From assembly GCF_044324875.1 (NCBI RefSeq), contig NZ_CP172185.1: a DNA stretch of 64,000 nucleotides, one strand, 5' to 3'. The DNA comes from Escherichia coli (GTDB lineage: Bacteria > Pseudomonadota > Gammaproteobacteria > Enterobacterales > Enterobacteriaceae). Position numbers and translations under genes: made by a program. This document shows, piece after piece, positions 1-21,474 of the stretch. How positions within the stretch are numbered: position 1 is the stretch's first letter; every line of letters starts with the position of its first letter. A model generated the notes under the pieces. The model made no database searches. It saw nothing but the letters and a program-made list of their open reading frames with translations, and was not told the DNA's origin.

Positions 1-10
1 GCAGATAGGC

Positions 11-48
11 TAATAAAAGAACCCGAAGCCAGAACGACTGGCTTCGGG
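11..48 (-). terminator. Rho-independent terminator downstream of dsbI
   Basis: Inverted repeat cccgaagccag/ctggcttcggg (about 22-48) followed on the minus strand by a T-rich tail (ttcttttatt), just past the dsbI stop. Confidence 0.55.
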
Positions 49-58
49 TGTTGCTGAG

Positions 59-730
59 TTAGCCTCTGACGATTTTAAGCGCCCATGCGCCACTCATAAT
101 GACCAGCAGCACCAGACACATACCAAAAGCCAGCATACAAGCCTGAGCCATATTCATAAAATGCCATGGTGGTAGCAGATACCAGCCTTCAGATTGCTGA
201 TACATTTCCACAAACCACTGTTGCGTGCTGCTCAGTGTGACGCCATCAGGAACGATTGGGGCGTCATAGCCGCAATCCCCGGTAGGCTTGAACCAATTTG
301 GTGCCCACTGTGCCAGTGGCAGGTTAAAGGGAAAAGTTGGATCGGTAGAGCAACCCTGTACGCCAAACAGTGAATCGGGATCCGGATTATGTACTGCATG
401 GTGGATATCGTTCAGTTTGAGCGAAAACTTCAGTCCCAAAATGCTGCCGTAAAATGCCATCACGCAGCCAATTAGCTTTAGGATGATGTTCTTTGGGTTG
501 ATCGCTGCAACCAATCCTCCAATAACCATCACAAACATGGCGTAGCGAATGTATACACATTGCTCACAGGGTGCCATGTAGAGATAGATCTGGAAGAAAG
601 AGTGCGCCAGGATAATTAACGCGCCCATCGCAATGGCCATTAACAACCACAAAAAACGTTGTTCTTGCCATCTTACCAGCGTATCCACCGGTGAAGTGCG
701 AAGGTCTTTCCACATTCCCTTAATACCCAT
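59..730 (-). CDS. dsbI: DsbB-like disulfide oxidoreductase DsbI (membrane protein)
   Basis: 223-aa ORF with multiple hydrophobic segments and paired cysteines (CEQC); last gene after assT and dsbL. Family assignment from recall. Confidence 0.8.
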
Positions 731-744
731 AGCCTGTTTCCCTG

Positions 745-1413
745 TTATTTGCTTGCTAACTCGCGGATAAGGTCTGCCATTGAGTCAATAGATTTAATAC
801 TCTTGGTGTAGATCAGGTATTTACCATTGACGACATACGCCGGAACGCCCTGGATTTTTGCAACTTCATAAGAGGCTTTCCATTTTTCCAGTGTTTCTTG
901 AACCGCTGGTTCTTTCAGTGCCGCTTCAAAATCCGCCTGACTCATACCTGCGGCATCCAGACCGGTTTTGATAAAAGCAGCCGGATCTTTACCATCAGAC
1001 CAGCGTTCTTTTTTGTCATGATAAGCCGCGTAATAAGCAAACTTGGCTTTCTTAAACTGAGAGTTAGCATCAAATAAGGAAATGCCTGCTGCTTTATCTT
1101 TATTGATCAAGACCGCAAAGACTTCGCTTGCTTGTTTGCCGTATTCACCTTTTGTTTCCAGATGGAATGGAGTAAAAGCAACGATATCTTTCACTTTTTC
1201 CGATACCGGACCGGTAACCGCTTTGTCGTACTTGTAACAGAACGGGCAGGCGTAGCTAAATACCTTAATCAGCGTTTTGTCGGCATTCGGAATAGGTTTT
1301 TCCAGAACCATGTAATCCGTGCCTTCGGTAAATGCAGAAGCGGTAAATGAAACAGCCAAAGCTGCGGTAAGCAGTATGGTTTTAAATAGTGATGAGATCC
1401 CTAATTTCGACAT
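745..1413 (-). CDS. dsbL: Periplasmic thiol:disulfide oxidoreductase DsbL (DsbA-like)
   Basis: 222-aa ORF with N-terminal signal peptide and CPFC thioredoxin-type active site ([10 protein letters not shown]); sits between assT and dsbI. Confidence 0.8.
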
Positions 1414-1430
1414 TTTTATTCCCTTCTTAA

Positions 1431-3227: not shown

Positions 3228-3670
3228 GGATATATCTCCTTATATAACGCAAATATATAATAATGATGAATATCGACTGTTGAGGTGGTGCTAATAAATT
3301 TGTTTTGTGAATTAAAATGTATTAATAATAATCGTTATGAATATTTTTACTGGTTTTAGATTTTTTGTATTTCTCTGTAACAAATATTTTCTTTTGGTCG
3401 ATACTAGGTGGGCAATATATCAATAACAATATTCAATATTGTGTAGTGTGATCCCAGCGACATTGTTTTTTAATTATTAAATCTATTTTTGATGCGGTGT
3501 TTGATATAAATAAACTTATAAAACAATAGGTTACAAAGTGATTTTATTGATTAATTTAATTACAGTATCGCTTACATATGACGATTTAATATTAAATTAG
3601 GAATTAATGTTAAATAAAAGTGATGGATGTGATTGATTATATATAGATGGGGGTGATGATTTGCGAAGTA
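3228..3670. promoter_or_regulatory. AT-rich noncoding region upstream of assT (promoter region)
   Basis: About 440 bp with no convincing ORF, visibly far more AT-rich than flanking genes; directly upstream of the assT start. Confidence 0.4.
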
Positions 3671-3700
3671 TAATAAATTGCCCCGGTAAACGGGGCAATA
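3671..3700 (-). terminator. Terminator hairpin downstream of ygiC
   Basis: ttgccccg-gtaaa-cggggcaa stem-loop (about 3678-3698) followed by tttattata on the minus strand, just past the ygiC stop. Confidence 0.5.
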
Positions 3701-3710
3701 TTGAACAGTA

Positions 3711-4871
3711 TTACTCAACAAAAATATGCGGATAAAACCGAGACATATCCTGGGTGATCAACGCACGGTCTTCACGAATGCCAATTCCGGCAGGTTGATC
3801 GTTCACCAGCCAGCTACCAATCAGCATATAGCTGTCGCCGAATTTCGGTAACGGGTGGAATTGCTGAACAATCATCCCTTCTTCGCCATACGGACCTTCC
3901 GCTGCTTCAATGGTTTTGCCGTTCTCAATGATCGACACGTTTGCGCCTTCACGGGAGAAGAGCGGTTTAACCACATATTTTTCCATTTGCGGATGATCAT
4001 CTTCCGCAAAATAAGCGGGCAGCAGGTTCGGGTGATTCGGGAACATCTCCCACAACAGCGGTAGAAGCGCTTTGTTGGAGATAATGCTCTTCCACGCCGG
4101 TTCCAGCCAGCGTACGCCTGCATCCTCCAGCTTGGTGGAGAACATCTCACGCAGCATAAATTCCCACGGATACAGCTTGAACAGGTTAGAAATCACCTGA
4201 TCTTGTAAATCCGTGAACTGACCTTTTTCGCCTAAACCGATATCGTCGATGTAGAGGAATTCAGTAGCGATTTCAGCTTCTGTCGCGCAGTCCTGCAAAT
4301 ACTGGATGGTTCCGCGATCTTCCACCGTGTCGCGACAGCAGGTGAGATGCAGCAACTGGAAGCCATACTGTTCACGCAACTCGACAAAGCGATCGATTAG
4401 CTTTTCTTGCAGACTGTTAAACTGGTCGCTGCCTTCCGGCAGGTTACCGGCGTTAAGCTGATCTTCCAGCCAGATCCACTGAAAGAATGCGGCTTCATAC
4501 AGTGACGTTGGCGTATCGGCGTTATTTTCCAGAAGTTTAGGTTCGCCAGTACCATCCCACGCCAGATCAAGACGCGAATAAAGCGATGGCTGGTGAGTCA
4601 GCCATGACTGGCGCACAAAACTCCAGGTGTGTTTTGGAATGCGGAATTTGGTCATCAGCTCATCGCTGGCGATCACTTTTTCAACCACTTTCAGGCACAT
4701 CTGGTGCAGTTCGGCGGTGACTTCTTCCAGCTTTTCAACCTGGGCGAGGGTCAACTTGTAGTAAGCATCTTCACACCAGTACGGTTCGCCGTACATGGTG
4801 TGAAAATTGAAACCGTATTCGTGGGCTTTTTCGCGCCAGTCCGGGCGCTCGGTAATACTGACTCTTTCCAT
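3711..4871 (-). CDS. ygiC: Glutathionylspermidine synthase-like ATP-grasp protein YgiC
   Basis: 386-aa ORF matching E. coli YgiC in length and sequence as recalled; follows ygiB. Confidence 0.85.
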
Positions 4872-4876
4872 CGGTA

Positions 4877-5548
4877 TCAGCCACCCATTGAACGAGAAGA
4901 GGTGCCGGTTGCGCTACGCTGCATAGTGCTTTGTTTGGCAACAGATTCACCAAAACCGCCACGAGTAACGGTGGTGGTGGTTGCCGGTTTTGGTGCCATT
5001 GCCGTCTTCGGTACGGTCATGGTGCGGCCTGGCTGGGCTGCGCCATAGTTTTTACCGGTCGCGTCGGTATATTTACCGTAAGCCGGGCTGGCCGGGTTTT
5101 TCGAGGAGAACAGCGGCTGCTGTGCAAATCCCGCGCCGCCGCCCATCAGACGACCCATCATGTAACCGGCCATCAGCGGCATCCAGAAACTCCCGCTGGA
5201 TTGCTGGGCCTGCGCCTGGTTTTCTGGTGCCATGCCAGCCTGGGCTGGTGCCTGCTGGCACTGACCTTCACCAAATTCAGCAACACAGTCTTCACGGGTG
5301 GCGTATTTCGGCGCAGTACGTTCGGCTTCTTTCAGCGCATTGTTGTACGCGGTGGTACATTCGGCGCTTTTGCCTGGGTTTGCAGCTGAACAGTCGTCAG
5401 CATTTTGATAGAGAGACACTGTTTCATCACTCTTTTCACAGCCAGCCAGCATAAAAACAGTGGCAACCGCGAGAGCGACTGGTGTCAGATGGCGTGCGCT
5501 CCAGTTTTTGCGGAACGATGCGTGGCGTATGGATTTTGTCCGTTTCAT
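4877..5548 (-). CDS. ygiB: DUF1190 lipoprotein YgiB
   Basis: ORF 4877..5581 trimmed to the internal start [12 protein letters not shown] (223 aa); lipobox LAGC; Gly/Met-rich middle region. Confidence 0.8.
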
Positions 5549-5667
5549 TTTTGTCTTCCGGGACCAGTGGTAAATACCCATCAGAATAGAGGATGGCTGG
5601 TCGAAATTGAAGCGAGAAGGGGGAAGAATGCGGCAGATAACCCGTATCTTTACGTTGCCTTACGTTT

Positions 5668-5690
5668 AGACGGGGCCGAAGCCCCGTCGT
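5668..5690 (-). terminator. Stem-loop downstream of tolC
   Basis: gacggggc-cgaa-gccccgtc hairpin just past the tolC stop, followed on the minus strand by an A/T-rich stretch. Confidence 0.45.
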
Positions 5691-5695
5691 AGTCA

Positions 5696-7177
5696 TCAGT
5701 TACGGAAAGGGTTATGACCGTTACTGGTGGTAGTGCGTGCGGATGTTTGCTGAACGACGGGTGCCGGGCTATCAGGCGCATAACCATCAGCAATAGCATT
5801 CTGTTCCGGCGTTTGCGGGGCAACGTTTTCCGGATTAGTGGAAACCGGTTTGCTCAGCGCATTGTTCAGTGCCAGCAGATCCTGCTCGTTCAACGTACCC
5901 AGGGCTGACTTAATATTCAGCTGATTAATCAGGTAGTTATAACGCGCATTCGCCAGCTCTTGCTTGGCGTTGTACAGCGTGGTGGTCGCATCCAACACAT
6001 CAACAATGGTACGCGTACCGACCGAGTAGCCCGCTTCCATCGCATCTAATGAGCTTTGAGCGGAAACTACGGCTTGTTTGTAGGCGTTAATGCTACTGAT
6101 AGAAGCATTAATGTTGTTGAAGGAGGAACGTACGGTTTGCACGACGCTACGATGGGCGCTTTCCAGTTGCTCACTGGCACCAACAAAGTTGTACTGGGCC
6201 TGTTTCACCTGCGAGTTAACCATTCCGCCCTGATAAATCGGCAGCGAGAAGCTCAGGCCAACTTTGTTCTGGCCCATATTGCTATCGTCATACTGGGTAC
6301 CAGCGGCACCTCGGGTTTTCGAACCGCTATATGAGGTGTCAGAAATCCCGGTAGAAGCCGTTAAATCCAGAGTCGGTAAGTGACCATCCTGCGCCTGGCG
6401 AATTTGCTCGCGCGCCAGGTCCTGGCTCAAGCGCGCCTGTAACAACGACAGGTTGCGTTTTTCGGCTTCTTTCAGCAGCGCGTTAACCGGCTGTGGTTTG
6501 TCGGTTTTAAAGTTTTCGACATTCAGCGCCGCCAGTTCCGGATAGTAGTTACCGGTGATCTGGCGCAGCTGCTCTACCGCGTTATCAAGGTTATTACGTG
6601 CGGTCACTTCGTTCGCCAGCACGGTATCGTACTGTGCGCGGGCGTTCTGCACGTCAGTGATCGCTACCAGGCCCACGTTAAAACGTTGGGTGGTTTGATC
6701 TAATTGACGGTAGATCGCTTCTTTTTGCGCCTGTGTATAGGAAAGAACGTCAATAGCATTCAACACGTTGAAATAAGCGGTCGCGGTGTTGAGGATCAAG
6801 GTTTGTTGATCGGTCTGATACGTGACGTCCTGAATCCCAGCTGCTTTTTCCTGCAGCGTTAACGCACGCCATTTCGACATATCAAAAATGGATTGAGTTA
6901 ACTGCAGGGACGCACTGGTCGCGTTAGAGTTGATGCCGTTCGCGTCGCGGTAGCCGTTGCTATAGGTGTAATCTGCACCTAAACCTAGCTGTGGCAGTAA
7001 TGGACTGCGCGCTTCATTAATTTTTTCAAAGGCAGCATCACGATCGGCGGCAGACTTACGCAATTCCGGGTTACTAAGGCGTGCTTGCTGATAAACTTGC
7101 ATCAGGTTCTCGGCCTGGCTCAACGAACTGAACCCAGAGAGGCTCAGGCCGATAAGAATGGGGAGCAATTTCTTCAT
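5696..7177 (-). CDS. tolC: Outer membrane efflux channel TolC
   Basis: ORF 5696..7216 trimmed to MKKLLPILIGLSLSGFSSLSQAENLMQVYQQA (493 aa); sequence is TolC along its whole length. Confidence 0.95.
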   Translation of the reverse strand: MKKLLPILIGLSLSGFSSLSQAENLMQVYQQARLSNPELRKSAADRDAAFEKINEARSPLLPQLGLGADYTYSNGYRDANGINSNATSASLQLTQSIFDMSKWRALTLQEKAAGIQDVTYQTDQQTLILNTATAYFNVLNAIDVLSYTQAQKEAIYRQLDQTTQRFNVGLVAITDVQNARAQYDTVLANEVTARNNLDNAVEQLRQITGNYYPELAALNVENFKTDKPQPVNALLKEAEKRNLSLLQARLSQDLAREQIRQAQDGHLPTLDLTASTGISDTSYSGSKTRGAAGTQYDDSNMGQNKVGLSFSLPIYQGGMVNSQVKQAQYNFVGASEQLESAHRSVVQTVRSSFNNINASISSINAYKQAVVSAQSSLDAMEAGYSVGTRTIVDVLDATTTLYNAKQELANARYNYLINQLNIKSALGTLNEQDLLALNNALSKPVSTNPENVAPQTPEQNAIADGYAPDSPAPVVQQTSARTTTSNGHNPFRN

Positions 7178-7381
7178 TTGCATTCCTTGTGGTGAAGCAG
7201 TATTTAGCGCGATCAAACTGTAAAATTATTGCGGATTCTAGCAGAAGCCGCTACCGCAAAAGGTTGGCGTTACGTGCCATAGGGCGTTAATGTGCCTCAA
7301 TTTAACACATGACTGCTCAAACGGCAGTCAAACGTCGCTGAAATTCACATTTAATTCACTATTAGTGCCAGGACATTAACA

Positions 7382-8011
7382 ATGCTTAAGCCAGACAACC
7401 TGCCCGTTACATTTGGCAAAAACGATGTAGAAATTATTGCACGAGAAACACTTTATCGCGGCTTTTTTTCATTAGATCTTTATAGATTTCGTCATCGTCT
7501 ATTCAACGGGCAAATGAGTCATGAGGTACGGCGGGAAATTTTTGAGCGCGGTCACGCCGCAGTCTTGCTACCCTTTGACCCAGTGCGTGATGAAGTTGTG
7601 CTGATTGAGCAGATTCGGATTGCCGCGTACGACACCAGCGAAACCCCCTGGCTACTGGAGATGGTTGCCGGGATGATTGAAGAGGGTGAAAGTGTGGAAG
7701 ATGTTGCCCGTCGCGAAGCGATTGAAGAGGCGGGACTGATAGTCAAACGGACCAAACCGGTGTTAAGTTTCCTGGCAAGCCCGGGGGGCACCAGTGAGCG
7801 TTCGTCAATTATGGTGGGCGAAGTGGACGCCACGACCGCAAGCGGTATTCACGGTCTGGCTGATGAAAACGAAGATATTCGCGTTCATGTGGTAAGCCGG
7901 GAACAGGCATACCAGTGGGTAGAAGAGGGGAAAATCGACAACGCAGCGTCGGTCATCGCTTTGCAATGGCTGCAGCTGCATCATCAAGCGTTAAAAAATG
8001 AGTGGGCATAA
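7382..8011 (+). CDS. nudF: ADP-ribose pyrophosphatase (Nudix hydrolase)
   Basis: 209-aa ORF with Nudix motif ([22 protein letters not shown]); divergent from tolC as in E. coli. Confidence 0.9.
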
Positions 8012-8434
8012 ATGAAGCGTTACACACCTGACTTTCCTGAAATGATGCGCCTGTGCGAGATGAACTTTTCGCAATTGCGCCGTTTGTTGCCGCGCAATGA
8101 CGCACCCGGCGAAACTGTAAGCTATCAGGTGGCAAACGCACAATATCGGCTAACGATTGTGGAATCGACCCGATACACTACCCTGGTGACAATAGAACAG
8201 ACTGCGCCCGCGATCAGTTACTGGAGCCTTCCGTCAATGACGGTGCGTCTGTATCATGACGCGATGGTGGCTGAAGTGTGTTCAAGCCAGCAGATTTTTC
8301 GCTTCAAAGCGCGGTATGATTATCCTAATAAAAAGTTGCATCAACGCGACGAAAAGCATCAAATTAATCAGTTTCTAGCGGACTGGTTGCGATACTGTTT
8401 AGCACATGGAGCGATGGCGATTCCGGTTTACTAG
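8012..8434 (+). CDS. yqiB: DUF1249 protein YqiB
   Basis: 140-aa ORF starting immediately at the nudF stop; conserved position between nudF and cpdA. Confidence 0.8.
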
Positions 8435-8458
8435 CGTCGTGAAACCTAAGGACACCAT

Positions 8459-9286
8459 TTGGAAAGCCTGTTAACCCTTCCTCTGGCTGGTGAGGCCAGA
8501 GTCAGGATTTTACAAATTACCGACACTCACCTGTTTGCGCAAAAGCACGAAGCCCTGTTAGGGGTAAACACCTGGGAAAGCTACCAGGCGGTGCTGGAGG
8601 CGATTCGGCCACACCAGCACGAATTCGACCTGATTGTCGCGACAGGTGATTTAGCGCAGGATCAATCCTCTGCGGCCTATCAGCATTTCGCTGAAGGCAT
8701 CGCAAGTTTTCGTGCGCCCTGCGTCTGGCTGCCGGGCAACCACGATTTCCAGCCCGCGATGTACAGCGCGTTACAGGATGCGGGTATCTCCCCGGCGAAG
8801 CGGGTGTTTATTGGTGAGCAATGGCAAATCCTGTTGCTGGATAGCCAGGTGTTTGGCGTGCCGCACGGTGAGCTGAGCGAGTTTCAGCTTGAGTGGCTGG
8901 AACGTAAACTGGCCGATGCGCCAGAACGCCATACGTTGCTGCTGCTGCATCATCATCCGCTACCTGCGGGTTGTAGTTGGCTTGATCAACACAGCCTGCG
9001 TAACGCGGGCGAACTGGATACCGTGCTGGCGAAGTTTCCGCACGTCAAATACTTGCTGTGCGGTCATATTCATCAGGAGCTGGATCTCGACTGGAACGGT
9101 CGCCGCCTGCTGGCAACGCCGTCGACCTGTGTGCAGTTTAAGCCGCACTGTTCCAACTTTACGCTGGACACCATCGCGCCCGGCTGGCGTACTCTCGAGT
9201 TACATGCTGATGGCACGCTGACCACCGAGGTGCATCGCCTGGCGGACACACGTTTCCAACCTGATACCGCTTCAGAAGGCTACTGA
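8459..9286 (+). CDS. cpdA: 3',5'-cyclic AMP phosphodiesterase CpdA
   Basis: 275-aa ORF with metallophosphoesterase motifs (GDLAQD, GNHD, CGHIH). Confidence 0.9.
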
Positions 9287-9867
9287 TGTCTACGCTTCTT
9301 TATTTACACGGTTTCAACAGCTCGCCGCGCTCTGCAAAAGCGAGCTTGTTAAAAAACTGGTTGGCGGAACATCACCCTGACGTAGAGATGATCATTCCGC
9401 AGTTGCCGCCGTATCCTTCCGATGCGGCAGAACTGCTGGAATCCATTGTCCTGGAACATGGCGGCGATTCGCTGGGTATTGTCGGTTCGTCACTGGGGGG
9501 ATATTACGCCACCTGGTTGTCGCAATGTTTTATGCTGCCCGCAGTGGTGGTCAACCCGGCGGTGCGCCCGTTTGAACTGCTGACGGACTATCTCGGTCAG
9601 AACGAGAACCCCTACACCGGGCAGCAATATGTGCTAGAGTCACGCCATATTTACGATCTCAAAGTCATGCAGATTGACCCGCTGGAAGCGCCGGATTTGA
9701 TCTGGCTGCTGCAACAGACGGGAGATGAAGTGCTGGATTACCGCCAGGCGGTGGCGTACTACGCTTCCTGCCGCCAGACTGTCATAGAAGGCGGCAACCA
9801 CGCATTCACGGGCTTCGAAGATTATTTCAACCCGATCGTCGATTTTCTTGGTCTGCACCATCTCTGA
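9286..9867 (+). CDS. yqiA: Esterase YqiA (alpha/beta hydrolase)
   Basis: 193-aa ORF overlapping the cpdA stop by 1 nt; GSSLGG nucleophile-elbow motif. Confidence 0.85.
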
Positions 9868-9892
9868 CGATCAACTCGAATTGCTAACTTAA

Positions 9893-11788
<1,896 letters not shown>

Positions 11789-11851: not shown

Positions 11852-13993
11852 TCAAAATTCCATTTTCACCGTGAATTGCACTTCACGCGGATCGCCAATC
11901 TGATTCCCCAGATTATTTGTGGCGATGGAAGAGGTGTAATACGTTTTATCAAACAGTTTTTTGACGTTTAATTGCAGTGTGACCGGATACTGCAATTTCA
12001 TTTTGTATGCGGCGAAGGCATCGGCAACGAAATAGCCTGGCAGATAATAGTCAGCCCCATTGGTTGCCGAACGACGGCTTACGCCATGTCCACCACCGCC
12101 AAACGTCAGTGTGTTATTGCCTGGCATGTTATGAATGTCATAGGTCAGGAATAGCGAACCGGTATGACGAGGAACATTCGGCAATGGTTTCCCTGCATAA
12201 TCAGGATCTTCCAGAACCTTAGCATCGGTATAGCCGTAGCTGGCAATGATATTAATGTTTTCAGTTAATGCTCCCGCAAGGTCGACTTCTACCCCTCTTG
12301 AACGAACGCGGCCTGCCGTTTTGGCGATGGTTTCATCACCAATACTTTCGGTATACAACACGTTACGTTTATGGATATCAAACAGCGCAATATCTGCGGT
12401 TATACCATCGAACAGCTCGAATTTTGCCCCGACTTCGTAAGCATTAGATGATTCCGGTGGAAGATCTCCGATGTAGCTGGCAATTGACGATTGCGGCATA
12501 AATGTTTGCGAATAATTAGCAAATAAGGATACCGATGGCGTCAGTTTGTAGACTAACCCCAGTTTGGGCGTCCATTGTTCATCGCGGCTGTCAGTATTGA
12601 CATTAAAAGGACGGCCTTTACCCGCATACTGCGTGTAATACTGATAGCGGATCCCGGCGACGGCAATCCAGTTATCGGTCAGATAGAGCGCGTCCTGTGC
12701 ATACGCTGAGTAGCTCTCCTGTTTGATCGTCTGATCGCTGTCCGACGCCGAGACAGTTGTGCATTTGCTGGTATTGCCGTAAACAGGGTTGTAGATATTG
12801 AAATCTTTAGCGTTTTTACAGCGAATCATATCTGTGCGCAGAAGATCATAATATTCATATGACACCCCACCCAGAATCTCATTATAGAACCCAGCAATAT
12901 CAACATTCCCTTGCAGATCCGCACGAGTAGCATGCATACGCTGGGTAGATCCCTGAGTTGCATCAACACGCCGTGTCAGCGTTCCTGTCGTTGCATCATA
13001 CGCGGTAACACGAGCCTGATTATCGCCGTATTTATCCTGGCTGTAGCTGTAATCAAAGCGCGCTGTCCACTGGCTATTGAGATGATATTCTGCGTTGAGT
13101 TGCGCCAGATCGGACTGACCATCTGTAATATTAAACGGTTCGTCAAAACGTATTTTTCGATCAACGTTTACGGGCTGTTTCGTCGTAAGGTCGAAAATCG
13201 TTCCACGATCGAACGGAGTTTTATAATCCCGATGGGAATAGAGCATGGTTACTGTTGCATTATCACCAAACCAGGTGAGTGATGGGGCAATAAATGTACT
13301 GCGCTCTTTACCAAAGTTTCGCCAGTAATCTTCATCCTGCACTTCCCCGGTAAGGCGATACGCCAGTTGAGTGCCTTCAATGGGGCCAGTGATATCAAGT
13401 TGCCCGGTGCCACCACCGAAACTGGAGGACGTGGCTGAGACAGAACCATGGAATGTTTTTTCCGGGCGTTTGGTCACGACGTTAATCAATCCACCAGGAT
13501 CGAGAATGCCATACAGCGTGGAGGCCGGGCCTTTTAGCACTTCCACACGTTCTGTGGCGGCGTTGAAACTGCGAGGAAGTACAGTTCGCAGGCCGTTGGT
13601 CATGATGGAGCCATCCCGGTTAGCACCAAACCCACGACGTACAAAGGCGTCCTGAGTTCCGCCTAATGTATTGGTCTGTACCACGTTACTGACGTTATAA
13701 AGCGCTTCATCCAGCGTCGTTGCATTCTGATTTTCCAGAACCTGATCGCTAACCGTATTGACCACCTGCGGGATATCCAGCATCGGCATATCGGTTAATG
13801 TCGCCGTGGAGGTGCTCAGAGGTTGATAACCATCGGTTGCTTCAGTTGCGGTATTTGCATCTGCTGTAACAGTGATTGTTTCGCCATCTTTGGTCGTTAC
13901 AGAGTCTGTTGCATGAATCATCGGTGCCGCAAAAAGCAGTGAAAAGAGCGCCCGACCTTTGAGTCCTGAGAATGAAGGTGTGAACATAGCCAT
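11852..13993 (-). CDS. TonB-dependent outer membrane siderophore-type receptor
   Basis: 713-aa ORF with signal peptide, TonB-box-like ETITVTA near the N-terminus, plug-domain motifs and a C-terminal aromatic residue (..TVKMEF). Resembles the fit system receptor (tentative). Confidence 0.85.
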   Translation of the reverse strand: MAMFTPSFSGLKGRALFSLLFAAPMIHATDSVTTKDGETITVTADANTATEATDGYQPLSTSTATLTDMPMLDIPQVVNTVSDQVLENQNATTLDEALYNVSNVVQTNTLGGTQDAFVRRGFGANRDGSIMTNGLRTVLPRSFNAATERVEVLKGPASTLYGILDPGGLINVVTKRPEKTFHGSVSATSSSFGGGTGQLDITGPIEGTQLAYRLTGEVQDEDYWRNFGKERSTFIAPSLTWFGDNATVTMLYSHRDYKTPFDRGTIFDLTTKQPVNVDRKIRFDEPFNITDGQSDLAQLNAEYHLNSQWTARFDYSYSQDKYGDNQARVTAYDATTGTLTRRVDATQGSTQRMHATRADLQGNVDIAGFYNEILGGVSYEYYDLLRTDMIRCKNAKDFNIYNPVYGNTSKCTTVSASDSDQTIKQESYSAYAQDALYLTDNWIAVAGIRYQYYTQYAGKGRPFNVNTDSRDEQWTPKLGLVYKLTPSVSLFANYSQTFMPQSSIASYIGDLPPESSNAYEVGAKFELFDGITADIALFDIHKRNVLYTESIGDETIAKTAGRVRSRGVEVDLAGALTENINIIASYGYTDAKVLEDPDYAGKPLPNVPRHTGSLFLTYDIHNMPGNNTLTFGGGGHGVSRRSATNGADYYLPGYFVADAFAAYKMKLQYPVTLQLNVKKLFDKTYYTSSIATNNLGNQIGDPREVQFTVKMEF

Positions 13994-14093
13994 TTAGTCT
14001 GTTATCCCAAAAACTCGCGGATTGTCGCGAGTGAAAATTGTTTCTTATTGCTCACTAAGCACTATCCGTTTGTTATTTCGCCATCGGATATGT

Positions 14094-14114
14094 AATTGAG
14101 AATCATTCAATCAT
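14094..14114. promoter_or_regulatory. Candidate Fur box in the divergent receptor/ABC promoter region
   Basis: aattgagaatcattcaatcat partially matches the Fur consensus GATAATGATAATCATTATC; lies in the AT-rich 13994-14366 intergenic region. Match judged by eye only. Confidence 0.3.
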
Positions 14115-14366
14115 GCGGTAATGTAGTAGTAAATGAGAAATAACAAAAAATTGCTACATGTGTTTTTATGAGAGGTTAATGCAATTCAATTGATGGTAAT
14201 TTATTAATATTTAATGATTTTATTTTTATCTTTAAAAAAATTTCACCTGTTATTTACCTTGTTTTTGTATGGCTTTTAACTTCTTGACTACTACATTTTG
14301 TGGCGTCAAACTCTCAAAGGAGAATGAGTTTTATTTTTGTTTGTCTTTGATTAAGTTGGCGTACAC

Positions 14367-15176
14367 GTGGCACATAACGCAAAAGGGCAGGGGCTGATCC
14401 TCGACAATGTTTCTGCCGGGTATCACAAGAAAATCATTGTTGATGGTGTTTCTTTCTCCGTTCCCACAGAAAAAATGACCGTTCTGGTTGGGGCAAACGG
14501 CTGTGGAAAGTCGACGTTGCTCAGCACCATTGCACGTATCTTGCAACCTATGGGCGGCTCGATATTGCTGGATGGTAAAGCGATTCACGAGCAACCAACG
14601 AAAGCGTTATCCCGTAGACTTGGGATCTTGCCGCAGTCGCCATTATTGCCGGAGGGCTTAACCGTTTATGAACTGGTGTCGCGTGGGCGTTTTCCCTGGC
14701 AGAATTTCATTCGTCAATGGAGCGACGCCGACGAGCAGGCGGTAGAAGAGGCCCTGAAATTAACCGGTACGCAGGAGTTTGCACATTTACCTGTTGAAAA
14801 ACTTTCTGGTGGGCAGCGCCAGCGTTGCTGGATTGCGATGGTGTTGGCGCAAAAGACGCCTTATATCCTACTGGATGAACCCACAACCTGGCTTGATTTA
14901 CGTTATCAGGTTGAAATTCTTGAGTTATTACATGATTTAACGCGTCATCACGGGCGTACAGTCGTCGTGGTGTTGCATGATCTGAATTTTGCCGTCAATT
15001 ATGGTGATACGTTGATATTTTTACGCCAGGGGAAAGTGGTGCGTGTGTTGAATGAGGGGGAGCATTGCACGCCTGAGCTGGTAAAAGCTGTCTTTGACGT
15101 TGATGTTCACGCATCAATAAATCCTCTGACGGGAAAGCCGTTCTTCATGCCGTTTCGTGGTGTAGAAAAAGTATGA
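14367..15176 (+). CDS. Iron-siderophore-type ABC transporter ATP-binding protein
   Basis: 269-aa ORF (GTG start) with Walker A GANGCGKST, signature LSGGQRQR and Walker B ILLDEPTTWLD. Confidence 0.9.
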   Translation: MAHNAKGQGLILDNVSAGYHKKIIVDGVSFSVPTEKMTVLVGANGCGKSTLLSTIARILQPMGGSILLDGKAIHEQPTKALSRRLGILPQSPLLPEGLTVYELVSRGRFPWQNFIRQWSDADEQAVEEALKLTGTQEFAHLPVEKLSGGQRQRCWIAMVLAQKTPYILLDEPTTWLDLRYQVEILELLHDLTRHHGRTVVVVLHDLNFAVNYGDTLIFLRQGKVVRVLNEGEHCTPELVKAVFDVDVHASINPLTGKPFFMPFRGVEKV

Positions 15177-16156
15177 TGCGCACAGGGCTGGTTACTGTAA
15201 TTTTCCTCGCCTTACTGCTGGTGGGATGCGTGGTATATCCAGGGATTGGTGCCCGATTTATTGCACCACAAACGGTGTTGCAGGCATTTCTTCATTTTGA
15301 TCCGCAAAACTTCGATCACAACGTAATTGTAAGACTCCGTTTGCCGCGTTTAGCGGCAGCATTGCTTACCGGTGCTTCTCTTGGAGTTGCTGGTGCTTTG
15401 TTGCAGGCTGTCATTCGTAACCCATTGGGGGAGCCACATATTTTAGGCTTAAATGCCGGAGCCGCTCTTGCTGTCGTTGCTGCCAGTGCGCTTGGGCTGG
15501 CCTTTCCGGTTGGACGCCCACTGCTGGCATCTACGGGCGGCGCGTTATTGTTCCTGTTGATATTGCTGCTTTCCTCCGCAGGGCGTTCAGGGTTAACGCC
15601 AATGAAAGTTACTTTATGCGGCGTGGCGCTATCGGCGTTCGTGTCCTCAATAACGGCTGCAATCCTGATTCTTGACGAACAAACACTGCTGGCGATGCGG
15701 ACATGGCTAGCAGGTGATTTAGCGGGGCAGGATTGGGCGACGCTGGGTACGTCCGCCTGGTTTTCTCTGGGGGGATTTGTGTTAGCCCTTTACCTTGCAC
15801 CCTCCCTTAACATGTTGGCACTGGGCGATCGCATGGCGCAGGGGCTGGGCGTCTCTGTACTCCGCACGCGAACATTCACCCTGCTTGCGATCGCGTTGCT
15901 CTGTGGCGCAGCCGTATCGATTGCTGGCCCCATTGGTTTTGTCGGCCTGCTAGTACCGCAGATTGTCCGGCGTCTGGTATCAGCGGATCTGCGCGTTCTG
16001 CTCCCTCTTTCAGCTTGTGTCGGCGCGCTTTTGTTATTACTGGCAGATATTATTGCCCGGACGCTTTTCACGCCCCATGAGTTAGCGACCGGTGTCATGA
16101 CGGCGTTAGTTGGTGCGCCTGTTTTTGTCATTATGGCGACGAGGATGTTCAAATGA
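15173..16156 (+). CDS. ABC transporter permease (FecCD family)
   Basis: 327-aa polytopic membrane ORF; start overlaps the ATPase stop by 4 nt. Confidence 0.85.
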   Translation: MMRTGLVTVIFLALLLVGCVVYPGIGARFIAPQTVLQAFLHFDPQNFDHNVIVRLRLPRLAAALLTGASLGVAGALLQAVIRNPLGEPHILGLNAGAALAVVAASALGLAFPVGRPLLASTGGALLFLLILLLSSAGRSGLTPMKVTLCGVALSAFVSSITAAILILDEQTLLAMRTWLAGDLAGQDWATLGTSAWFSLGGFVLALYLAPSLNMLALGDRMAQGLGVSVLRTRTFTLLAIALLCGAAVSIAGPIGFVGLLVPQIVRRLVSADLRVLLPLSACVGALLLLLADIIARTLFTPHELATGVMTALVGAPVFVIMATRMFK

Positions 16157-17202
16157 GTCGGATAATGAACGTCGGGCTACGCCCACTACGTGTTGGTAAG
16201 TTTTCGACACTGGTACGCCCTAAAAATCTGGTGTTGCTTGGTGGGTTGTTTCTGTTTGCGGTTGGAATACTGATATTCGGTCTGATGCAGGGTTCTTTCT
16301 CCGTCCCGGCATCGGAAGTAGGACGAGCATTGTTCTCTCCAGAAAACGTAAGCACAGACGCACGTTATATTGTGCAGGATATTCGCTTGCCGAGAGTCAT
16401 CATGGCATTGCTATGCGGGGCCATGTTAGGTATGGCGGGGGCCGCGATGCAATCCATTGCGCGTAACGGCCTTGCCGATCCTGGTTTAATCGGCGTCAAA
16501 GAAGGATGTAGCGTGGCGGTGCTGTGGCTGATTTTCCAGTTTCCAATGCTGGGAATGTTCTGGCGTCCAGTGGCTGGTCTTGCTGGTGGCTTGTTGGTGG
16601 CTTTAATCGTGATTTTTTGTGCGCGCGATATTTCCCGCCCGCGATTTGTTCTGATTGGTATTGGTGTTTCCTGGTTTTTCGCCGCCGGTATCGGTGTATT
16701 TATGACCACTGCAGATGTTCGAGATGTACAAACTGCATTGATGTGGTTATCGGGAAGCCTGCATGCAGCTAACTGGATGTTAGTCGGTATTTCAGCCTGT
16801 TGGATGTTGCCAGCCGCTCTTTTATTGCTGTTCACCGCCAGGGCGGCGGATATCGCTCTGCTTGGTCATCAGGTTGCAACCGGGTTAGGGGTGAATAGTT
16901 CTCGTCTGGCGTTGTTACGTGTCGCCGCACCCATAATCCTGACAGCCGTCTGCGTTTCGTGTGTTGGTAACATCGGTTTTGTCGGATTGATAGCACCCCA
17001 TATATCACGTTTTATTCTACGTGGCGGGCAGACGACATTACTGCTGGGGAGCGCCGTATCGGGGGCGTTGTTAGTCATCCTGGCGGATAGCATTGGTCGT
17101 TTGGCTTTTTTGCCTTTGCAACTGCCTGCCGGAATCATTATTTCATTGATTGGTGGACCATTCTTTTTGCTACTGCTCTGGCAGCGCAGGAACAGTTTTT
17201 AA
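16153..17202 (+). CDS. ABC transporter permease (FecCD family), second subunit
   Basis: 349-aa polytopic membrane ORF overlapping the previous permease stop by 4 nt; paralogous to it. Confidence 0.85.
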   Translation: MSRIMNVGLRPLRVGKFSTLVRPKNLVLLGGLFLFAVGILIFGLMQGSFSVPASEVGRALFSPENVSTDARYIVQDIRLPRVIMALLCGAMLGMAGAAMQSIARNGLADPGLIGVKEGCSVAVLWLIFQFPMLGMFWRPVAGLAGGLLVALIVIFCARDISRPRFVLIGIGVSWFFAAGIGVFMTTADVRDVQTALMWLSGSLHAANWMLVGISACWMLPAALLLLFTARAADIALLGHQVATGLGVNSSRLALLRVAAPIILTAVCVSCVGNIGFVGLIAPHISRFILRGGQTTLLLGSAVSGALLVILADSIGRLAFLPLQLPAGIIISLIGGPFFLLLLWQRRNSF

Positions 17203-17212
17203 TGGGAGTTAT

Positions 17213-18160
17213 ATGCGTTTATTTTTTTCTCTGCTGATACTGTTGTCATTCTTTGCCCGCGCGACAGAACCTGTTCAGGTCTTTACTGATGATTTAGGGC
17301 GCAAAGTCACTGTTCCTGCTCATCCAAAGAGAATTGTCTCTTTACACGATCTTGATATCACTATTCCTCTGATTGAGCTCGGTGTACCTCCTGTCGCCAG
17401 CCACGGGCGAACCCGGCCTGACGGTAGCCATTTCATTCGATCAGGCGCGTTATTGACAGGTGTCGACTTTGATAATTCATCGATCGCTTTTATTGGCACC
17501 GCTGATATTGATATTGAAGCGATTGTGGCGGCAAAACCTGACCTGATCATCACAGAACCGACCCGTAATACGCCCATTGAACAACTGGAAAAAATTGCGC
17601 CCACGGTGAGCATTGATCATCTCAAAGGAGGCGCGCCAGAAATCTACCGCAAGCTGGCAGAACTTACAGGAACGCAGTCGCAGCTGGCGATACTTGAACG
17701 CCGCTATCAGGCACAAATCAATGCGCTGAAGGCGACGCTGGACAGCCAAAAAATAACGGTATCGGTGATTCAGGCAAATCAGGGAAAAATTAATGTGATG
17801 CATAGCTATCATTCGCTGGGGCGGGTATTACGCGATGCTGGTTTTCGCTTTCCGCCGCTGATTGAGAGCATTCCTGAAGGTGGGCGAATGGATGTGAGCG
17901 CAGAGCGTTTACCTGAACTGGATGCCGATTTTGTTTTTGCAACCTGGCGCGGTGACACCGGTGGTAAACCTCAGGATGAGCTGGCAGCAATGGAAAAAGT
18001 CATGCCGGGATGGTGTCAGTTTCTGACGGCCTGTCGTTCCGGGCGCTATGTGCTGATTTCTCGTGAAGAGGCGATTTCTAACTCCTTTGCATCTCTGGGG
18101 CTGATGGCTGCGCAGATACAATCACAAATTGCGGGACGACCTCTACCGGAGGCTAAATGA
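17213..18160 (+). CDS. Periplasmic substrate-binding protein (siderophore/cobalamin-type)
   Basis: ORF 17150..18160 trimmed to MRLFFSLLILLSFFARA, which has a signal peptide and an upstream gggag RBS; class III binding-protein-like sequence. Confidence 0.8.
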   Translation: MRLFFSLLILLSFFARATEPVQVFTDDLGRKVTVPAHPKRIVSLHDLDITIPLIELGVPPVASHGRTRPDGSHFIRSGALLTGVDFDNSSIAFIGTADIDIEAIVAAKPDLIITEPTRNTPIEQLEKIAPTVSIDHLKGGAPEIYRKLAELTGTQSQLAILERRYQAQINALKATLDSQKITVSVIQANQGKINVMHSYHSLGRVLRDAGFRFPPLIESIPEGGRMDVSAERLPELDADFVFATWRGDTGGKPQDELAAMEKVMPGWCQFLTACRSGRYVLISREEAISNSFASLGLMAAQIQSQIAGRPLPEAK

Positions 18161-19044
18161 TCCAGAAAGACAAAACGCGGGTTGATATTTATGGTGAGCG
18201 TTTTCGCACTCGCGCGAGTCAGTTAACGCCTGGGTTAAGAACTGTCGCAAGCTACATTAATGAGCATCGTGAAGTGGTACTCGAGCAAACGGCGATGGAA
18301 ATTGCGGCCACGTTGAACACTTCCGATGCCACAGTTATCAGGGCTATACAGGCTCTGGGGTTTGCCGGGCTGCGTGATCTGAAACGCACTCTGGAACAGT
18401 GGCTTGGTCCAGCCCTTAGTTCCAGCGAAAAGATGTCTACGACGGTGAGTAACTTGACGAGCGATGTTAACACCGCAATCGACTTTGTTCTTGAAGGGCA
18501 TTTGTATACTTGTAATGTCCTGTCAGAGCCTGAAAACCGCCACGCGCTTGCGCAAGCTGTAGCGTTGTTGGTGCAGGCACGGCAAGTCGCTATTTTTGGC
18601 ATTGGCGCTTCGGGTATCCTGGCGGACTATACCGCACGACTATTCAACCGCATAGGTTTGCCTGCCACGGCACTAAACCGTACGGGTATTGGCCTTGCCG
18701 AGCAACTGATCGCGCTTCAACGTGGCGATGTTCTGATCATGATGGCGCAAAAATCTGCGCACCGGGAAGGGCTGACAACGCTTCGTGAGGCGAGGCGGCT
18801 GGGGATCCCTGTTATTTTGCTGACAAACGCGCTGGATTCACGTTTTAGCAAAGACGCCAGTATCGTGATTCATGTTCCGCGCGGGGATGAAAAGGGGAAA
18901 ACGCCACTACATGGTACGGTATTGTTGTGCCTGGAAATGATTGTTTGGTCGGTGGCTTCCGCGATGCCGCAGCGTGCGGTTAAAACCATTAAGCGAATTA
19001 ACGATTTCCATCGGGGTTTGAAAACGGGAAGAAAGAATGGCTAA
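18157..19044 (+). CDS. RpiR/MurR-family transcriptional regulator (HTH plus SIS domain)
   Basis: 295-aa ORF overlapping the binding-protein stop by 4 nt; N-terminal helix-turn-helix region and C-terminal SIS-like Rossmann segment (VAIFGIGASGILADY). Confidence 0.75.
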   Translation: MIQKDKTRVDIYGERFRTRASQLTPGLRTVASYINEHREVVLEQTAMEIAATLNTSDATVIRAIQALGFAGLRDLKRTLEQWLGPALSSSEKMSTTVSNLTSDVNTAIDFVLEGHLYTCNVLSEPENRHALAQAVALLVQARQVAIFGIGASGILADYTARLFNRIGLPATALNRTGIGLAEQLIALQRGDVLIMMAQKSAHREGLTTLREARRLGIPVILLTNALDSRFSKDASIVIHVPRGDEKGKTPLHGTVLLCLEMIVWSVASAMPQRAVKTIKRINDFHRGLKTGRKNG

Positions 19045-19052
19045 TCTGACCT

Positions 19053-19084
19053 GAGGCCGGTAGCAACACCGGCCTCTTTTCAGG
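19053..19084 (+). terminator. Rho-independent terminator after the ABC/regulator operon
   Basis: gaggccgg-tagcaaca-ccggcctc hairpin followed by tttt; lies between the regulator stop and the ygiN stop. Confidence 0.55.
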
Positions 19085-19088
19085 AATG

Positions 19089-19403
19089 TTAAATCCCCGG
19101 TTGCAGAATACGGATATTCATCTCCAGCACGTCGCCTTTTACGGCTTCGCTGTACGCCTTCATGTGCGGGGTTTGCAGATGCGCTTCAAGATGCGCGATG
19201 CTTTCCCACTGCTCAATCATCACGATAGAATCCGGTGCCATAGACTGGAAACTCACGCCAGCAGCGCAATCCACCATTGGCGCATAGCCGTGGCAACCTT
19301 CTTCTTTCAGTACGGTTGGAACGATTTTAGCAAACTGATCCAATACCGCCTGACGGTGATGTTGACCAGGACGAGTACGGATTTCTGCGATTACGGTAAG
19401 CAT
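19089..19403 (-). CDS. ygiN: Quinol monooxygenase YgiN
   Basis: 104-aa ORF; antibiotic-biosynthesis-monooxygenase-like sequence; conserved partner downstream of mdaB. Confidence 0.9.
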   Translation of the reverse strand: MLTVIAEIRTRPGQHHRQAVLDQFAKIVPTVLKEEGCHGYAPMVDCAAGVSFQSMAPDSIVMIEQWESIAHLEAHLQTPHMKAYSEAVKGDVLEMNIRILQPGI

Positions 19404-20124: not shown

Positions 20125-21474
20125 TTACCAGCTCACCTTCGCCTCAAATCCACGTTGTTCCGCATTCCCAAACTCAACATTCATGCCATGCAATTTGGCG
20201 ATTCGCTGGACAATCGATAGCCCAAGTCCACTGCCGGTAGCGGTTTGTCCGGGTGGGCGATAGAAGCGTTCGCCAATTCTCGCCAGTGCCTCTGGCGTCA
20301 CACCGGGGCCGTTATCCCTCACGATGAAACTATCGGCATTCAGCGTGACGTCCACCACGCTGCCCTGTGGACTGTAGCGCACGGCGTTATCCAGAAGGTT
20401 TCGTACCAACAAACTTAGCAACAGCGGTTGTCCGGTGCGTTTGATGCCGTGGGCATTGAGTGTCAGTCGCACGTCAATTTTCGCCTGCTGCGCCGTGTGG
20501 TAAATATCCATCACCGATGATTGCAGGAGATCTTCAAGCGGGATCTCCGCGACGTCCTGAAGGTTATCCAGTGAGTCCAGCCGCGATAGCGTGAGCAGTT
20601 GATCAACCAGACGAGTAGCACGATCGATTCCGGAATGTAATTGAAGCAGCGCTTTTTTCCGCGCCTGCGGATCATCGTCAGAGAGCTGCGCAACTTCGGT
20701 TTGCACTTTCAGCGCCGTTAACGGGCTACGAAGTTCGTGAGCTGCGTCGGAGGTAAAGCGTCGTTCTCGAACCATCATCGCATGTGTGCGGGCGAACAGT
20801 TGATTCAACGACTCAACCAGTGGACGCACTTCGCTGGGTACGCCCGTCGCGTTTAGTGGTTTTTCCGAGTCAGGGTCACGCATACGTAGTGCCAGCGCCA
20901 GTTTGTTCAGCGGCGCGAGTTCACGACCCAGTAGTACCATCATGATGATTAACATAATCGGCAGTGCGACAAGCCACGGGATCAATTGCCCTGCAACAAT
21001 CGCCAGCGCCATGTCTTCGCGGTATTCCCATTCCTGACCAACAACGATGCGATATTTGCCATCAGGTGAGGTCATCCAGACAAAACGCCAGGGATCGTCT
21101 TCACCGACCAGTTGCCCGTCAGCAAAACCTTCCCGTTGATAGCTATAGGGAATATCTTCTCCGTTATCGCCATCGTTAAGGACCATTCTGCCGTCGTGGG
21201 TAAAGATGGCAAAGGTTAGCGCATCGTCATCAACATGACCGTGTTTTAATTTATTTGGCGTCTGTGCCATGCGATCTGCCGCGTTGATTTCGTTGAGATC
21301 GAGCGTACTTAACCGCTTGGCAAACAGCATCAGTTGGGTGTCGAACAACTCATCGACGTTATCCGTTGTTTGTTTCCAGGCGACAAAGCTGGAAAGCAGC
21401 CAGGTCACTGAGGCCAGAATTAAAAAGATTAGCGTCAGCCTGACTCGCAGACTAAGACGTTGGGTAAATTTCAT
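20125..21474 (-). CDS. qseC: Sensor histidine kinase QseC
   Basis: 449-aa ORF with two transmembrane segments, H-box ([12 protein letters not shown]) and ATPase motifs; overlaps the qseB stop. Confidence 0.95.

Follow-up and report, generated by a model that had tools for sequence, protein, structure and literature searches.

The window, i.e. the whole stretch of 64,000 nucleotides of Escherichia coli DNA analysed here, carries the six-gene fit iron-uptake locus, in which fitA is transcribed divergently from fitBCDE-fitR and which is inserted between parE and ygiN (Table 1). The gene at 18157-19044 is almost certainly fitR, encoding the dedicated auto-repressor of this locus, since the species, the content of six genes, their order, the HTH plus SIS architecture of the product and the position at the operon end all match the published gene. 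An earlier note on this DNA had placed a regulator gene at exactly these coordinates, within a siderophore-type ABC operon and translationally coupled to the gene of the binding protein. This is confirmed in every point: the ORF codes for 295 amino acids, it ends the operon of the ABC genes, with fitA divergent from it, and its start overlaps the fitE stop by 4 nt (ATGA), as it also does in the PGAP annotation of an E. coli genome of 99.2% identity. PGAP calls fitA of that genome a 'TonB-dependent siderophore receptor', and in E. coli genomes of 99% identity the six fit genes lie between parE and ygiN under matching PGAP names. Behind fitR, the region 19040-19095 with the terminator-like hairpin shows a fold energy of -23.3 kcal/mol (z -5.1 versus shuffles). 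The locus is accessory, being present in 1873 of 5426 complete E. coli genomes, and in K-12-type strains parE adjoins ygiN. According to the literature, fitA occurs mainly in B2 and pathogenic E. coli isolates.

Table 1. Genes and predicted regulatory features of the fit locus (positions in the window)
Feature	Position	Strand	Remarks
fitA, TonB-dependent siderophore receptor, 713 aa	11852..13993	-	TIGR01783, 363.5 bits vs cut-off 223.5; PGAP agrees
fitA-fitB spacer, 373 bp	13994-14366		between divergent fitA and fitB
Invariant island 1, TGTAATTGAGAATCATTCAAnCA, Fur-box-like	14091..14113		overlaps predicted PfitA -10 and extended TG; 12/19 Fur consensus
Predicted PfitA -10 TTGAAT with extended TG	14110-14105; TG 14113-14112	-
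Predicted FitR operator site A, TGTAGTAGTAAATG	14122..14135	+	overlaps predicted PfitA -35 (TTTACT, 14133-14128, minus strand); invariant across genera
TGTAGTAGT box in site A	14122-14130
GCTACA, degenerate partner half-site	14153..14158	+	25 nt after TGTAGT
Predicted FitR operator site B, TTGACTACTACA	14284..14295	+	predicted PfitB -35 fused to ACTACA; inverted copy of A; invariant across genera
Predicted PfitB -35 TTGACT	14284-14289	+
ACTACTACA box in site B	14287-14295
Predicted PfitB -10 CAAACT	14307..14312	+	17 nt after TTGACT; CAnnnT invariant in alignment
Invariant island 4, aGAGAATGAGtTTTATTTTTgTTT, Fur-box-like	14318..14341		over predicted PfitB start region; 12-13/19 Fur consensus
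fitB, ABC ATPase, 269 aa	14367..15176	+	GTG start, identical in PGAP; FecE-/FepC-type NCBIfam matches
fitC, FecCD-family permease	15173..16156	+	ORF, family match, PGAP
fitD, FecCD-family permease	16153..17202	+	ORF, family match; PGAP start 16165
fitE, Peripla_BP_2-type periplasmic siderophore-binding protein, 315 aa	17213..18160	+	ATG at 17213; signal peptide; PGAP
Coupling junction	18148..18160	+	read from sequence; Shine-Dalgarno GGAGG within fitE (18148-18152), then ATGA overlap of fitR ATG (18157-18159) and fitE TGA (18158-18160)
fitR, HTH_6 + SIS (MurR/RpiR-family) auto-repressor, 295 aa	18157..19044	+	ATG start; Pfam, PGAP, published function
Intrinsic-terminator-like hairpin, GAGGCCGGT, loop AGCAAC, ACCGGCCTC, then TTTT	19053..19080	+	closes operon before convergent ygiN

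Reportedly, the fit system of E. coli was already the subject of a paper by Ouyang and Isaacson in Infect Immun 74:6949 in 2006. FitR was named and characterised by the same authors in 2008 (Ouyang & Isaacson, Open Microbiol J 2:94, PMC2593036), who described its HTH plus SIS architecture, its auto-repression, its binding to the fitA-fitB spacer and its independence of Fur. Over-expression of FitR repressed fitA and fitB reporters and knock-out de-repressed them; in EMSA the protein bound the fitA-fitB spacer, with unlabelled probe competing (PMC2593036). The effect on both divergent promoters was 2-5 fold and the same with and without iron, the small de-repression in the fitR mutant (2-5 fold) being assayed without a candidate inducer; repression of fit by Fur, acting independently of FitR, was published as well (PMC2593036). 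The earlier note had regarded this type of regulator as unusual for iron uptake and had assumed an effect on the operon. The same point about iron uptake is made in the 2008 paper, and the effect is repression (PMC2593036). A search for RpiR regulators together with siderophores yielded nothing apart from this paper, and the search for later FitR literature found only unrelated usages of 'Fitr' and 'Fite'. The finding is real but not new: publications of 2006-2008 had already reported this regulator and its unusual position, so that the genome scan adds nothing new in kind.

The domain search bore out the HTH_6 plus SIS call of the earlier note: FitR matches PF01418 (HTH_6) at residues 14-81 (E 3.6e-10) and PF01380 (SIS) at residues 138-247 (E 1.3e-13). 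PDB sequence matches comprise RccR, NanR and SIS isomerases, with RccR as the best (PDB 8K3B, E 2.3e-15). FitR R62 aligns with R53 of RccR, a residue indispensable for binding DNA, and Q65 with RccR R56. Among NCBIfam models only those of MurR/RpiR type were matched, the best with 79.7 and 72.8 bits versus cut-offs of 920 and 378, and neither FitR nor its nearest relatives reached the NCBIfam cut-off of a curated named subfamily (MurR, HexR, AlsR etc.). MurR, AlsR (RpiR) and HexR/YebK of E. coli K-12 have the same Pfam architecture and are 18-20% identical to FitR. These three adjoin sugar-catabolic genes, unlike fitR: the 80 loci inspected showed no sugar-metabolism gene linked to it, while a TonB-dependent receptor accompanies it constantly. 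Of the more distant relatives, P0128 is again last in a TonB-receptor/ABC operon, P0139 faces metal-transport genes, P0124 adjoins RND efflux genes, and the context of P0129 and P0132 is uninformative.

A non-conventional substrate, as considered in the earlier note, finds no support in the transport genes. With 363 bits (cut-off 223.5), FitA falls among the TonB-dependent siderophore receptors, FhuA- and FoxA-type models being next best, and the binding protein of a sister locus is of ferrichrome/ferrioxamine type. In PMC5907654, a paper citing the fit work, the Fit substrate is reported as not being enterobactin.

In RccR, the serines S139, S183, S185 and S188 hold the phosphate of KDPG, and equivalent Ser/Thr residues are conserved in NanR and MurR (PMC11014249). 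FitR retains one of these four, S152; the others are A197, K199 and H202, and the glycine of the loop is replaced by S200. Where HexR, MurR and AlsR of E. coli K-12 read [ST]-x-[ST]-G-x-[STK], FitR reads A-Q-K-S-A-H, the placement being the same in the pairwise alignments with RccR and NanR and in the MAFFT alignment with HexR, MurR and AlsR. The motif GxGxS of the first SIS loop is common to FitR and the three K-12 proteins. The replacement loop MM[AG]QKS[AP]HREG is nearly invariant in 13 FitR orthologues of 68-89% identity, with Q198, K199, S200, H202, R203, E204 and P250-L251-H252 invariant, and the canonical Ser/Thr loop is absent from the whole branch of nearest relatives, which offers no ligand as a precedent. 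FitR R161 and R165 correspond in the alignment to H148 and R152 of RccR, by which the sugar acid is held (PMC11014249). Judged from these alignments, the pocket appears unlike a classic phosphosugar site; S152 together with several basic residues could still hold a phosphate, so that a phosphosugar may yet be bound.

The earlier note had proposed that a sugar or phosphosugar signal tunes the operon. The SIS domain of FitR would then sense a cytoplasmic sugar phosphate and tie Fit iron uptake to the carbon or cell-wall sugar status of the cell. This SIS domain is clear, the characterised relatives RccR/HexR, NanR and MurR all use phosphorylated sugars, the first phosphate-binding serine (S152) is invariant, R161 and R165 are aligned with the residues of RccR in contact with the sugar acid, and K199, H202 and R203 could serve as phosphate ligands in place of the serines. 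However, inspection of the SIS ligand residues brought no evidence in favour of such tuning, as FitR has other residues in place of the loop glycine and of all but one of the four Ser/Thr; the gene neighbourhoods lack sugar metabolism in all 80 loci, and FitR stays far below the cut-off of every curated phosphosugar-regulator model, so that we consider sensing of a sugar phosphate improbable. With three phosphate-holding hydroxyls lost, a siderophore or its product appears more likely as effector than a phosphosugar. Tentatively, we regard it as possible that a small anionic molecule is bound in a remodelled SIS pocket, an imported siderophore or product coming into question before a phosphosugar of central metabolism. 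The extension to the whole Enterobacterales clade around FitR, as one-component sensors of an imported (xeno)siderophore or its product in which the serine phosphate cradle of the SIS domain was converted to a conserved basic Q-K-S-x-H-R-E loop, is rather unlikely. If siderophore sensing were true, FitR would be the first regulator of the RpiR/SIS type whose effector is not a phosphosugar, and would stand for a new class of siderophore-responsive repressors with AND logic together with Fur.

Iron or another metal as co-repressor was considered on account of invariant His and Cys residues and was rejected, the effect of FitR being the same with and without iron (PMC2593036); C119 is furthermore not conserved in the relative P0128.

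Alternatively, it might be that FitR has no effector at all and acts as a constitutive auto-repressor which does no more than damp and stabilise fit expression by negative feedback, with the SIS domain used for oligomerisation only. A direct feedback is given by the position of fitR at the end of the operon that its product represses, and the modest, iron-independent repression, the degenerate canonical ligand loop and about 18 years of literature without a reported inducer would all be in line with this view. Nevertheless, the invariance of loop and pocket at 68-89% identity exceeds what oligomerisation appears to need, and receptors for xenosiderophores are usually substrate-induced, as is known from FecIR, PchR and YbtA. 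A FitR free of any effector therefore seems doubtful to us.

The operator of FitR is quite probably formed by TGTAGTAGT boxes of the RccR/HexR type, as predicted from the conservation of the fitA-fitB spacer. In an alignment of 16 genus- or species-level representatives, four invariant islands stand out from a mean column identity of 49%; outside the boxes and two Fur-like islands the spacer was not conserved in these 16 sequences. TGTAGT and ACTACA occupy conserved positions in 51 of 51 fitA-fitB spacers, and of 70 related loci 69 have the site A box, among them those whose receptor is not orthologous. The boxes are kept at loci in which the receptor opposite the FitR-like gene shares only 35-39% identity with FitA, also without ABC genes, and they precede the fitR-like gene itself; no Fur-like box was seen there. 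In related spacers (30 kb) the 9-mer TGTAGTAGT was counted 120 times, in their flanking DNA (1.18 Mb) 8 times; in the 64-kb window it is present only twice, at sites A and B on opposite strands. The arrangement TGTAGT-N25/24-RCTACA was detected in 33 of 50 type-1 and 18 of 20 type-2 loci, compared to 1.6% expected from shuffles. At site B the partner half-site is not conserved.

RccR was footprinted on TGTAGT/ACTACA half-sites, the same boxes that are conserved in the fit spacer, and its aceA site reads TGTAGTAGT (PMC11014249). Like FitR, the KDPG-responsive RccR/HexR of Pseudomonas (RpiR family) are auto-regulated repressors of HTH_6 plus SIS architecture. RccR copes with a long spacer and with a second half-site that is weak; its half-sites are 3 or 16 nt apart, compared to 25 nt in the predicted FitR operator. 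The sequence similarity of the two proteins is low, and their targets differ, namely central carbon genes for RccR and an iron transporter for FitR. The overlap of the boxes with both predicted -35 elements, their invariance, their travelling with FitR-like genes and their match to the RccR half-site are new and derived in silico only, as is the position of Fur-like boxes over the predicted -10/+1 regions.

Another factor could bind the conserved boxes, and the boxes coincide with predicted -35 elements, which are themselves conserved for reasons of their own. A scan for consensus promoters flagged neither predicted PfitA nor PfitB; the one minus-strand site that it did propose (14246-14217) falls within a non-conserved part of the spacer. 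That the TGTAGTAGT/ACTACTACA boxes are extended -35 elements or are recognised by a different conserved factor, while FitR binds another part of the spacer, is the least probable alternative: the overlap with the TTGACT and TTTACT hexamers, the different promoter placed by the scan and the lack of a published FitR footprint would allow it, but the boxes follow FitR-like genes despite non-orthologous receptors and missing ABC genes, lie in front of the fitR-like gene without a Fur-like box, are identical to the half-site on which a homologous HTH_6 protein was footprinted and are, beyond the two Fur-like islands, all that is conserved in the spacer.

Searching with the 19-bp Fur consensus and up to 3 mismatches gave zero sites. 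Matches of 12-13/19 are common by chance in the window and not significant alone; the two in the spacer coincide exactly with islands 1 and 4.

The whole reading, namely the auto-repressor FitR acting on a TGTAGTAGT operator, locks by Fur and a second signal, and a non-phosphosugar effector, is rather likely in our opinion. According to it, fitR is transcribed last in fitBCDE-fitR and translationally coupled to fitE, and its product would occupy TGTAGTAGT over the PfitA -35 and the inverted copy over the PfitB -35, while the Fur-like boxes would lie over the predicted -10/+1 of both promoters. A FitR box at -35 and a Fur-like box at -10/+1 would give each promoter two independent locks, one for iron (Fur) and one for a second signal (FitR). 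More weakly, we infer that this signal may be a small anionic ligand in a pocket formed by S152, R161, R165, Q198, K199, S200, H202, R203 and H252. An imported siderophore or its product would then relieve repression by FitR, i.e. the system would be substrate-induced. DNA looping that joins sites A and B is no more than a possibility, since their distance of 168-192 bp across loci is without clear helical phasing.

Substrate-responsive regulators of siderophore uptake are known as activators, e.g. FecIR (sigma/anti-sigma) and PchR, YbtA and AlcR (AraC type). Their logic would be like that of FitR if substrate induction is right, Fur reporting the need for iron and the second regulator the availability of the cognate siderophore. 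They belong to protein families unrelated to FitR, which is a repressor with an SIS sensor.

Precise mutations could be designed from the predicted operator and the promoter layout with two locks. Given the odd SIS pocket, a search for the effector with standard phosphosugar panels may be misdirected. The identity of the effector would probably reveal the Fit substrate and would define a ligand class for a large branch of the RpiR family without a characterised member. The fit locus is enriched in extra-intestinal and adherent-invasive E. coli, and a use of fitA as marker gene for AIEC has been suggested. In ST258 Klebsiella, fitA is iron-induced.

The 7.3-kb segment is the fit locus and the ORF under study is FitR itself. 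Matches to it at 95-99% identity occur in 1873 of the 5426 complete E. coli genomes (over at least 80% of its length in 1870), and PGAP annotates the same six genes in the matching genomes, flanked by parE and ygiN-mdaB-qseCB. The genes are known as fitA, fitB (ATPase), fitC and fitD (permeases), fitE (binding protein) and fitR (Ouyang & Isaacson 2008, PMC2593036). Excess FitR lowers expression of fitA-lacZ and fitB-lacZ about 3-fold; both reporters are de-repressed in a fitR knock-out and repressed again upon complementation, and purified FitR shifts the fitA-fitB spacer with competition by cold probe; the effect of FitR is unchanged with iron present or absent (PMC2593036). The Fit substrate is not enterobactin according to a 2018 paper (PMC5907654). 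A literature search for FitR work after the 2008 paper found none. Since the gene is FitR itself, its action on the operon was already known, and because over-expression and knock-out effects have been reported (PMC2593036), the regulator experiment proposed in the earlier note has essentially been done. What is left is a testable predicted operator and a hint of an effector other than a classic phosphosugar.

The earlier note had described an RpiR/SIS regulator coupled to a siderophore-type operon, and this description was correct. Pfam detects both HTH_6 (residues 14-81, E 3.6e-10) and SIS (residues 138-247, E 1.3e-13), the fitR start codon (ATG, 18157) and the TGA stop of the binding-protein gene (18158-18160) overlap in an ATGA junction, and GGAGG is located 5 nt 5' of the ATG. 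By domain architecture FitR belongs to the MurR/RpiR family; it falls in no curated subfamily, all MurR/RpiR-type NCBIfam matches being sub-threshold (top 79.7 bits, cut-off 920).

Features of the fit locus (window coordinates)
Feature	Position	Strand	Sequence or size	Basis
fitA, TonB-dependent siderophore receptor	11852-13993	- (divergent)		TIGR01783, 363 bits (cut-off 223.5)
Island 1	14091-14113		TGTAATTGAGAATCATTCAAnCA	spacer alignment
Predicted PfitA -10	14110-14105	-	TTGAAT	spacing, invariant positions
Predicted PfitA extended TG	14113-14112	-	TG	spacing, invariant positions
Island 2	14122-14135		TGTAGTAGTAAAyG	spacer alignment
Predicted PfitA -35	14133-14128	-	TTTACT	spacing, invariant positions
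E. coli partner	14153-14158		GCTACA	
Island 3	14284-14295		TTGACTACTACA	spacer alignment
Predicted PfitB -35	14284-14289	+	TTGACT	spacing, invariant positions
Predicted PfitB -10	14307-14312	+	CAAACT	spacing, invariant positions
Island 4	14318-14341		aGAGAATGAGtTTTATTTTTaTTT	spacer alignment
fitB, ABC ATPase	14367-15176	+		ORF, family match
fitC, FecCD permease	15173-16156	+		ORF, family match
fitD, FecCD permease	16153-17202	+		ORF, family match
fitE, Peripla_BP_2-type binding protein	17213-18160	+		ORF, family match
fitR	18157-19044	+	295 aa	
Operon end, strong hairpin then TTTT	19053-19080			-23.3 kcal/mol, z -5.1

When the fitA-fitB spacers of 16 representatives, chosen at genus or species level, are aligned (mean column identity 49%), four islands are invariant. 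One box, TT(T/G)ACTACTACA, occurs in islands 2 and 3 in opposite orientations; at each promoter, read toward its own gene, it fuses a -35-like hexamer to ACTACA. The footprinted half-site of RccR, a Pseudomonas RpiR-family regulator, is TGTAGT/ACTACA, and its aceA site is TGTAGTAGT (PMC11014249). TGTAGT and ACTACA stand at conserved positions in all 51 spacers of type-1 loci, those with the complete fit layout. Type-2 loci, in which a FitR-like gene faces a non-orthologous receptor, carry the same Fur-like box and TGTAGTAGTAAA 5' of that receptor and ACTACA also 5' of the fitR-like gene, the spacer keeping TGTAGTAGT...ACTACA boxes beside the Fur-like box. The spacer DNA of 70 loci (30 kb) contains 120 copies of the box 9-mer vs 8 in 1.18 Mb elsewhere, and the 64-kb window has it solely at islands 2 and 3. 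Furthermore, an RCTACA partner lies 24-25 nt 3' of TGTAGT in 51 of 70 loci (1.6% expected from shuffles). The conserved box quite probably belongs with FitR, as an operator newly proposed here in silico, and FitR would thus resemble RccR and HexR in DNA recognition. That the boxes, part of which is -35-like, are something other than a FitR site, a matter separate from the effector, is improbable beside their recurrence at both types of locus.

For islands 1 and 4, agreement with the Fur consensus reaches 12-13 of 19 positions; this is a weak score alone, and no closer match was found in the fit spacer. The putative FitR boxes would lie over the -35 elements and the Fur-like boxes over the -10/+1 regions. 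Such a predicted layout fits the published finding that FitR and Fur repress both promoters independently and additively (PMC2593036). The best Fur-consensus matches of the window (14-15/19, at 3256-3345 and 20941-20959) lie outside fit, one group in a low-GC island and the other within the qseC coding region, possibly by chance. A consensus scan also detected a sigma-70-like site, GTGAAA-18-TAAAAT, directed toward fitA (14246-14217, minus strand) in the AT-rich mid-spacer, which is not conserved between genera.

The best PDB match of FitR was RccR (8K3B, E 2.3e-15) by single sequence and NanR (4IVN, E 7.1e-18) by orthologue profile. Four serines, S139, S183, S185 and S188, hold the phosphate in the structure of RccR with KDPG, and the authors assign this role to four conserved S/T in NanR, MurR and RccR (PMC11014249). 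Inspection of these ligand contacts, as suggested in the earlier note, showed that S139 is kept (FitR S152), but S183, S185 and S188 correspond to A197, K199 and H202, and G186 to S200. A MAFFT comparison with three E. coli K-12 paralogues agrees, the loop reading A-Q-K-S-A-H in FitR, S-H-T-G-R-T in HexR, S-Y-S-G-S-K in MurR and T-H-S-G-R-T in AlsR. FitR thus does not carry the phosphate-binding signature of the family. Because the loop MM[AG]QKS[AP]HREG, R161 and R165 (aligned with RccR H148 and R152) and P250-L251-H252 are nearly invariant in 13 orthologues (68-89% identity, a dozen genera), the predicted pocket is conserved but different, being more basic and without the serine cradle.

The canonical S-x-S-G-x-S/T loop is also absent from the closest full-length representatives (roughly 100, within P0124-P0269) in a library of 1.8 billion proteins; most of them read LAY-GRxYxE, with LHG and FGIGPS motifs, and none of these relatives reaches a curated NCBIfam cut-off. 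For these reasons FitR is placed, by sequence, in a large RpiR branch without a curated or characterised member. A 41%-identical relative (locus L087, 110-8798) keeps the loop as MMVQKSKHHEG and faces a metal-related operon (BOF, HupE/UreJ, MFS_3, a CsoR/RcnR-type repressor, NicO), which hints at a wider tie of the clade to metal homeostasis.

With one genome scanned for each species, a FitR relative is encoded in 274 species, and the best 80 loci are all from Enterobacterales. About 55 of these 80 are type 1 (fitA divergent from fitBCDE-fitR). About 20 loci (within L048-L080; Pantoea, some Serratia, some Erwinia) are type 2, with a FitR-like gene 66-69% identical and a TonB-dependent receptor only 35-39% identical to FitA. 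In Pantoea agglomerans (L058, 5271-9870), the single type-2 locus examined for downstream genes, a gene for a ferrichrome/ferrioxamine-type binding protein comes after that of the receptor, and ABC membrane genes are absent. A 45%-identical relative is again the last gene of a receptor-ABC operon. The siderophore receptor is hence the constant partner, and no sugar-metabolism gene was a constant neighbour among the examined loci.

The best-supported picture is a two-lock control of the fit promoters. Fur would signal iron sufficiency, and FitR, the product of an operon under its own repression, would form the second lock, probably relieved by a ligand. The interpretation in the earlier note, with its proposed sugar or phosphosugar signal, is supported in part. 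As the receptor is the constant partner, sugar genes are unlinked and the pocket is remodelled, we tentatively favour an anionic, substrate-related effector over a metabolic phosphosugar. FitR sensing a phosphosugar, as its SIS fold and retained S152 would allow with Lys/His/Arg standing in for Ser, is unlikely. Equally unlikely is a constitutive feedback repressor without effector, which would accommodate the iron-independent repression but less readily the near-invariant pocket. FecIR, PchR and YbtA are substrate-responsive siderophore regulators; a substrate-responsive FitR would be alike in regulatory logic but differs in protein family and sign of regulation.

Additional genes between fitE and fitR were present in Erwinia sp. 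JUb26 and in the operon of the 45%-identical relative, and spacing suggests the same for Pantoea coffeiphila (loci L038, 5926-8989; L040; L083, 6010-7946). The inserts include two tandem PstS-family (phosphate-binding-protein-like) proteins without an obvious signal peptide, and that of L038 also a 379-aa membrane protein without NCBIfam match. Near fit, positions 1-4000 of the window have a low GC content (44-46%) and in 99.8%-identical genomes hold an aryl-sulfate sulfotransferase gene and dsbI. Because at least 80% of positions 1-9900 is covered in just 1507 of the 5426 E. coli genomes, this region is regarded as a second accessory island.
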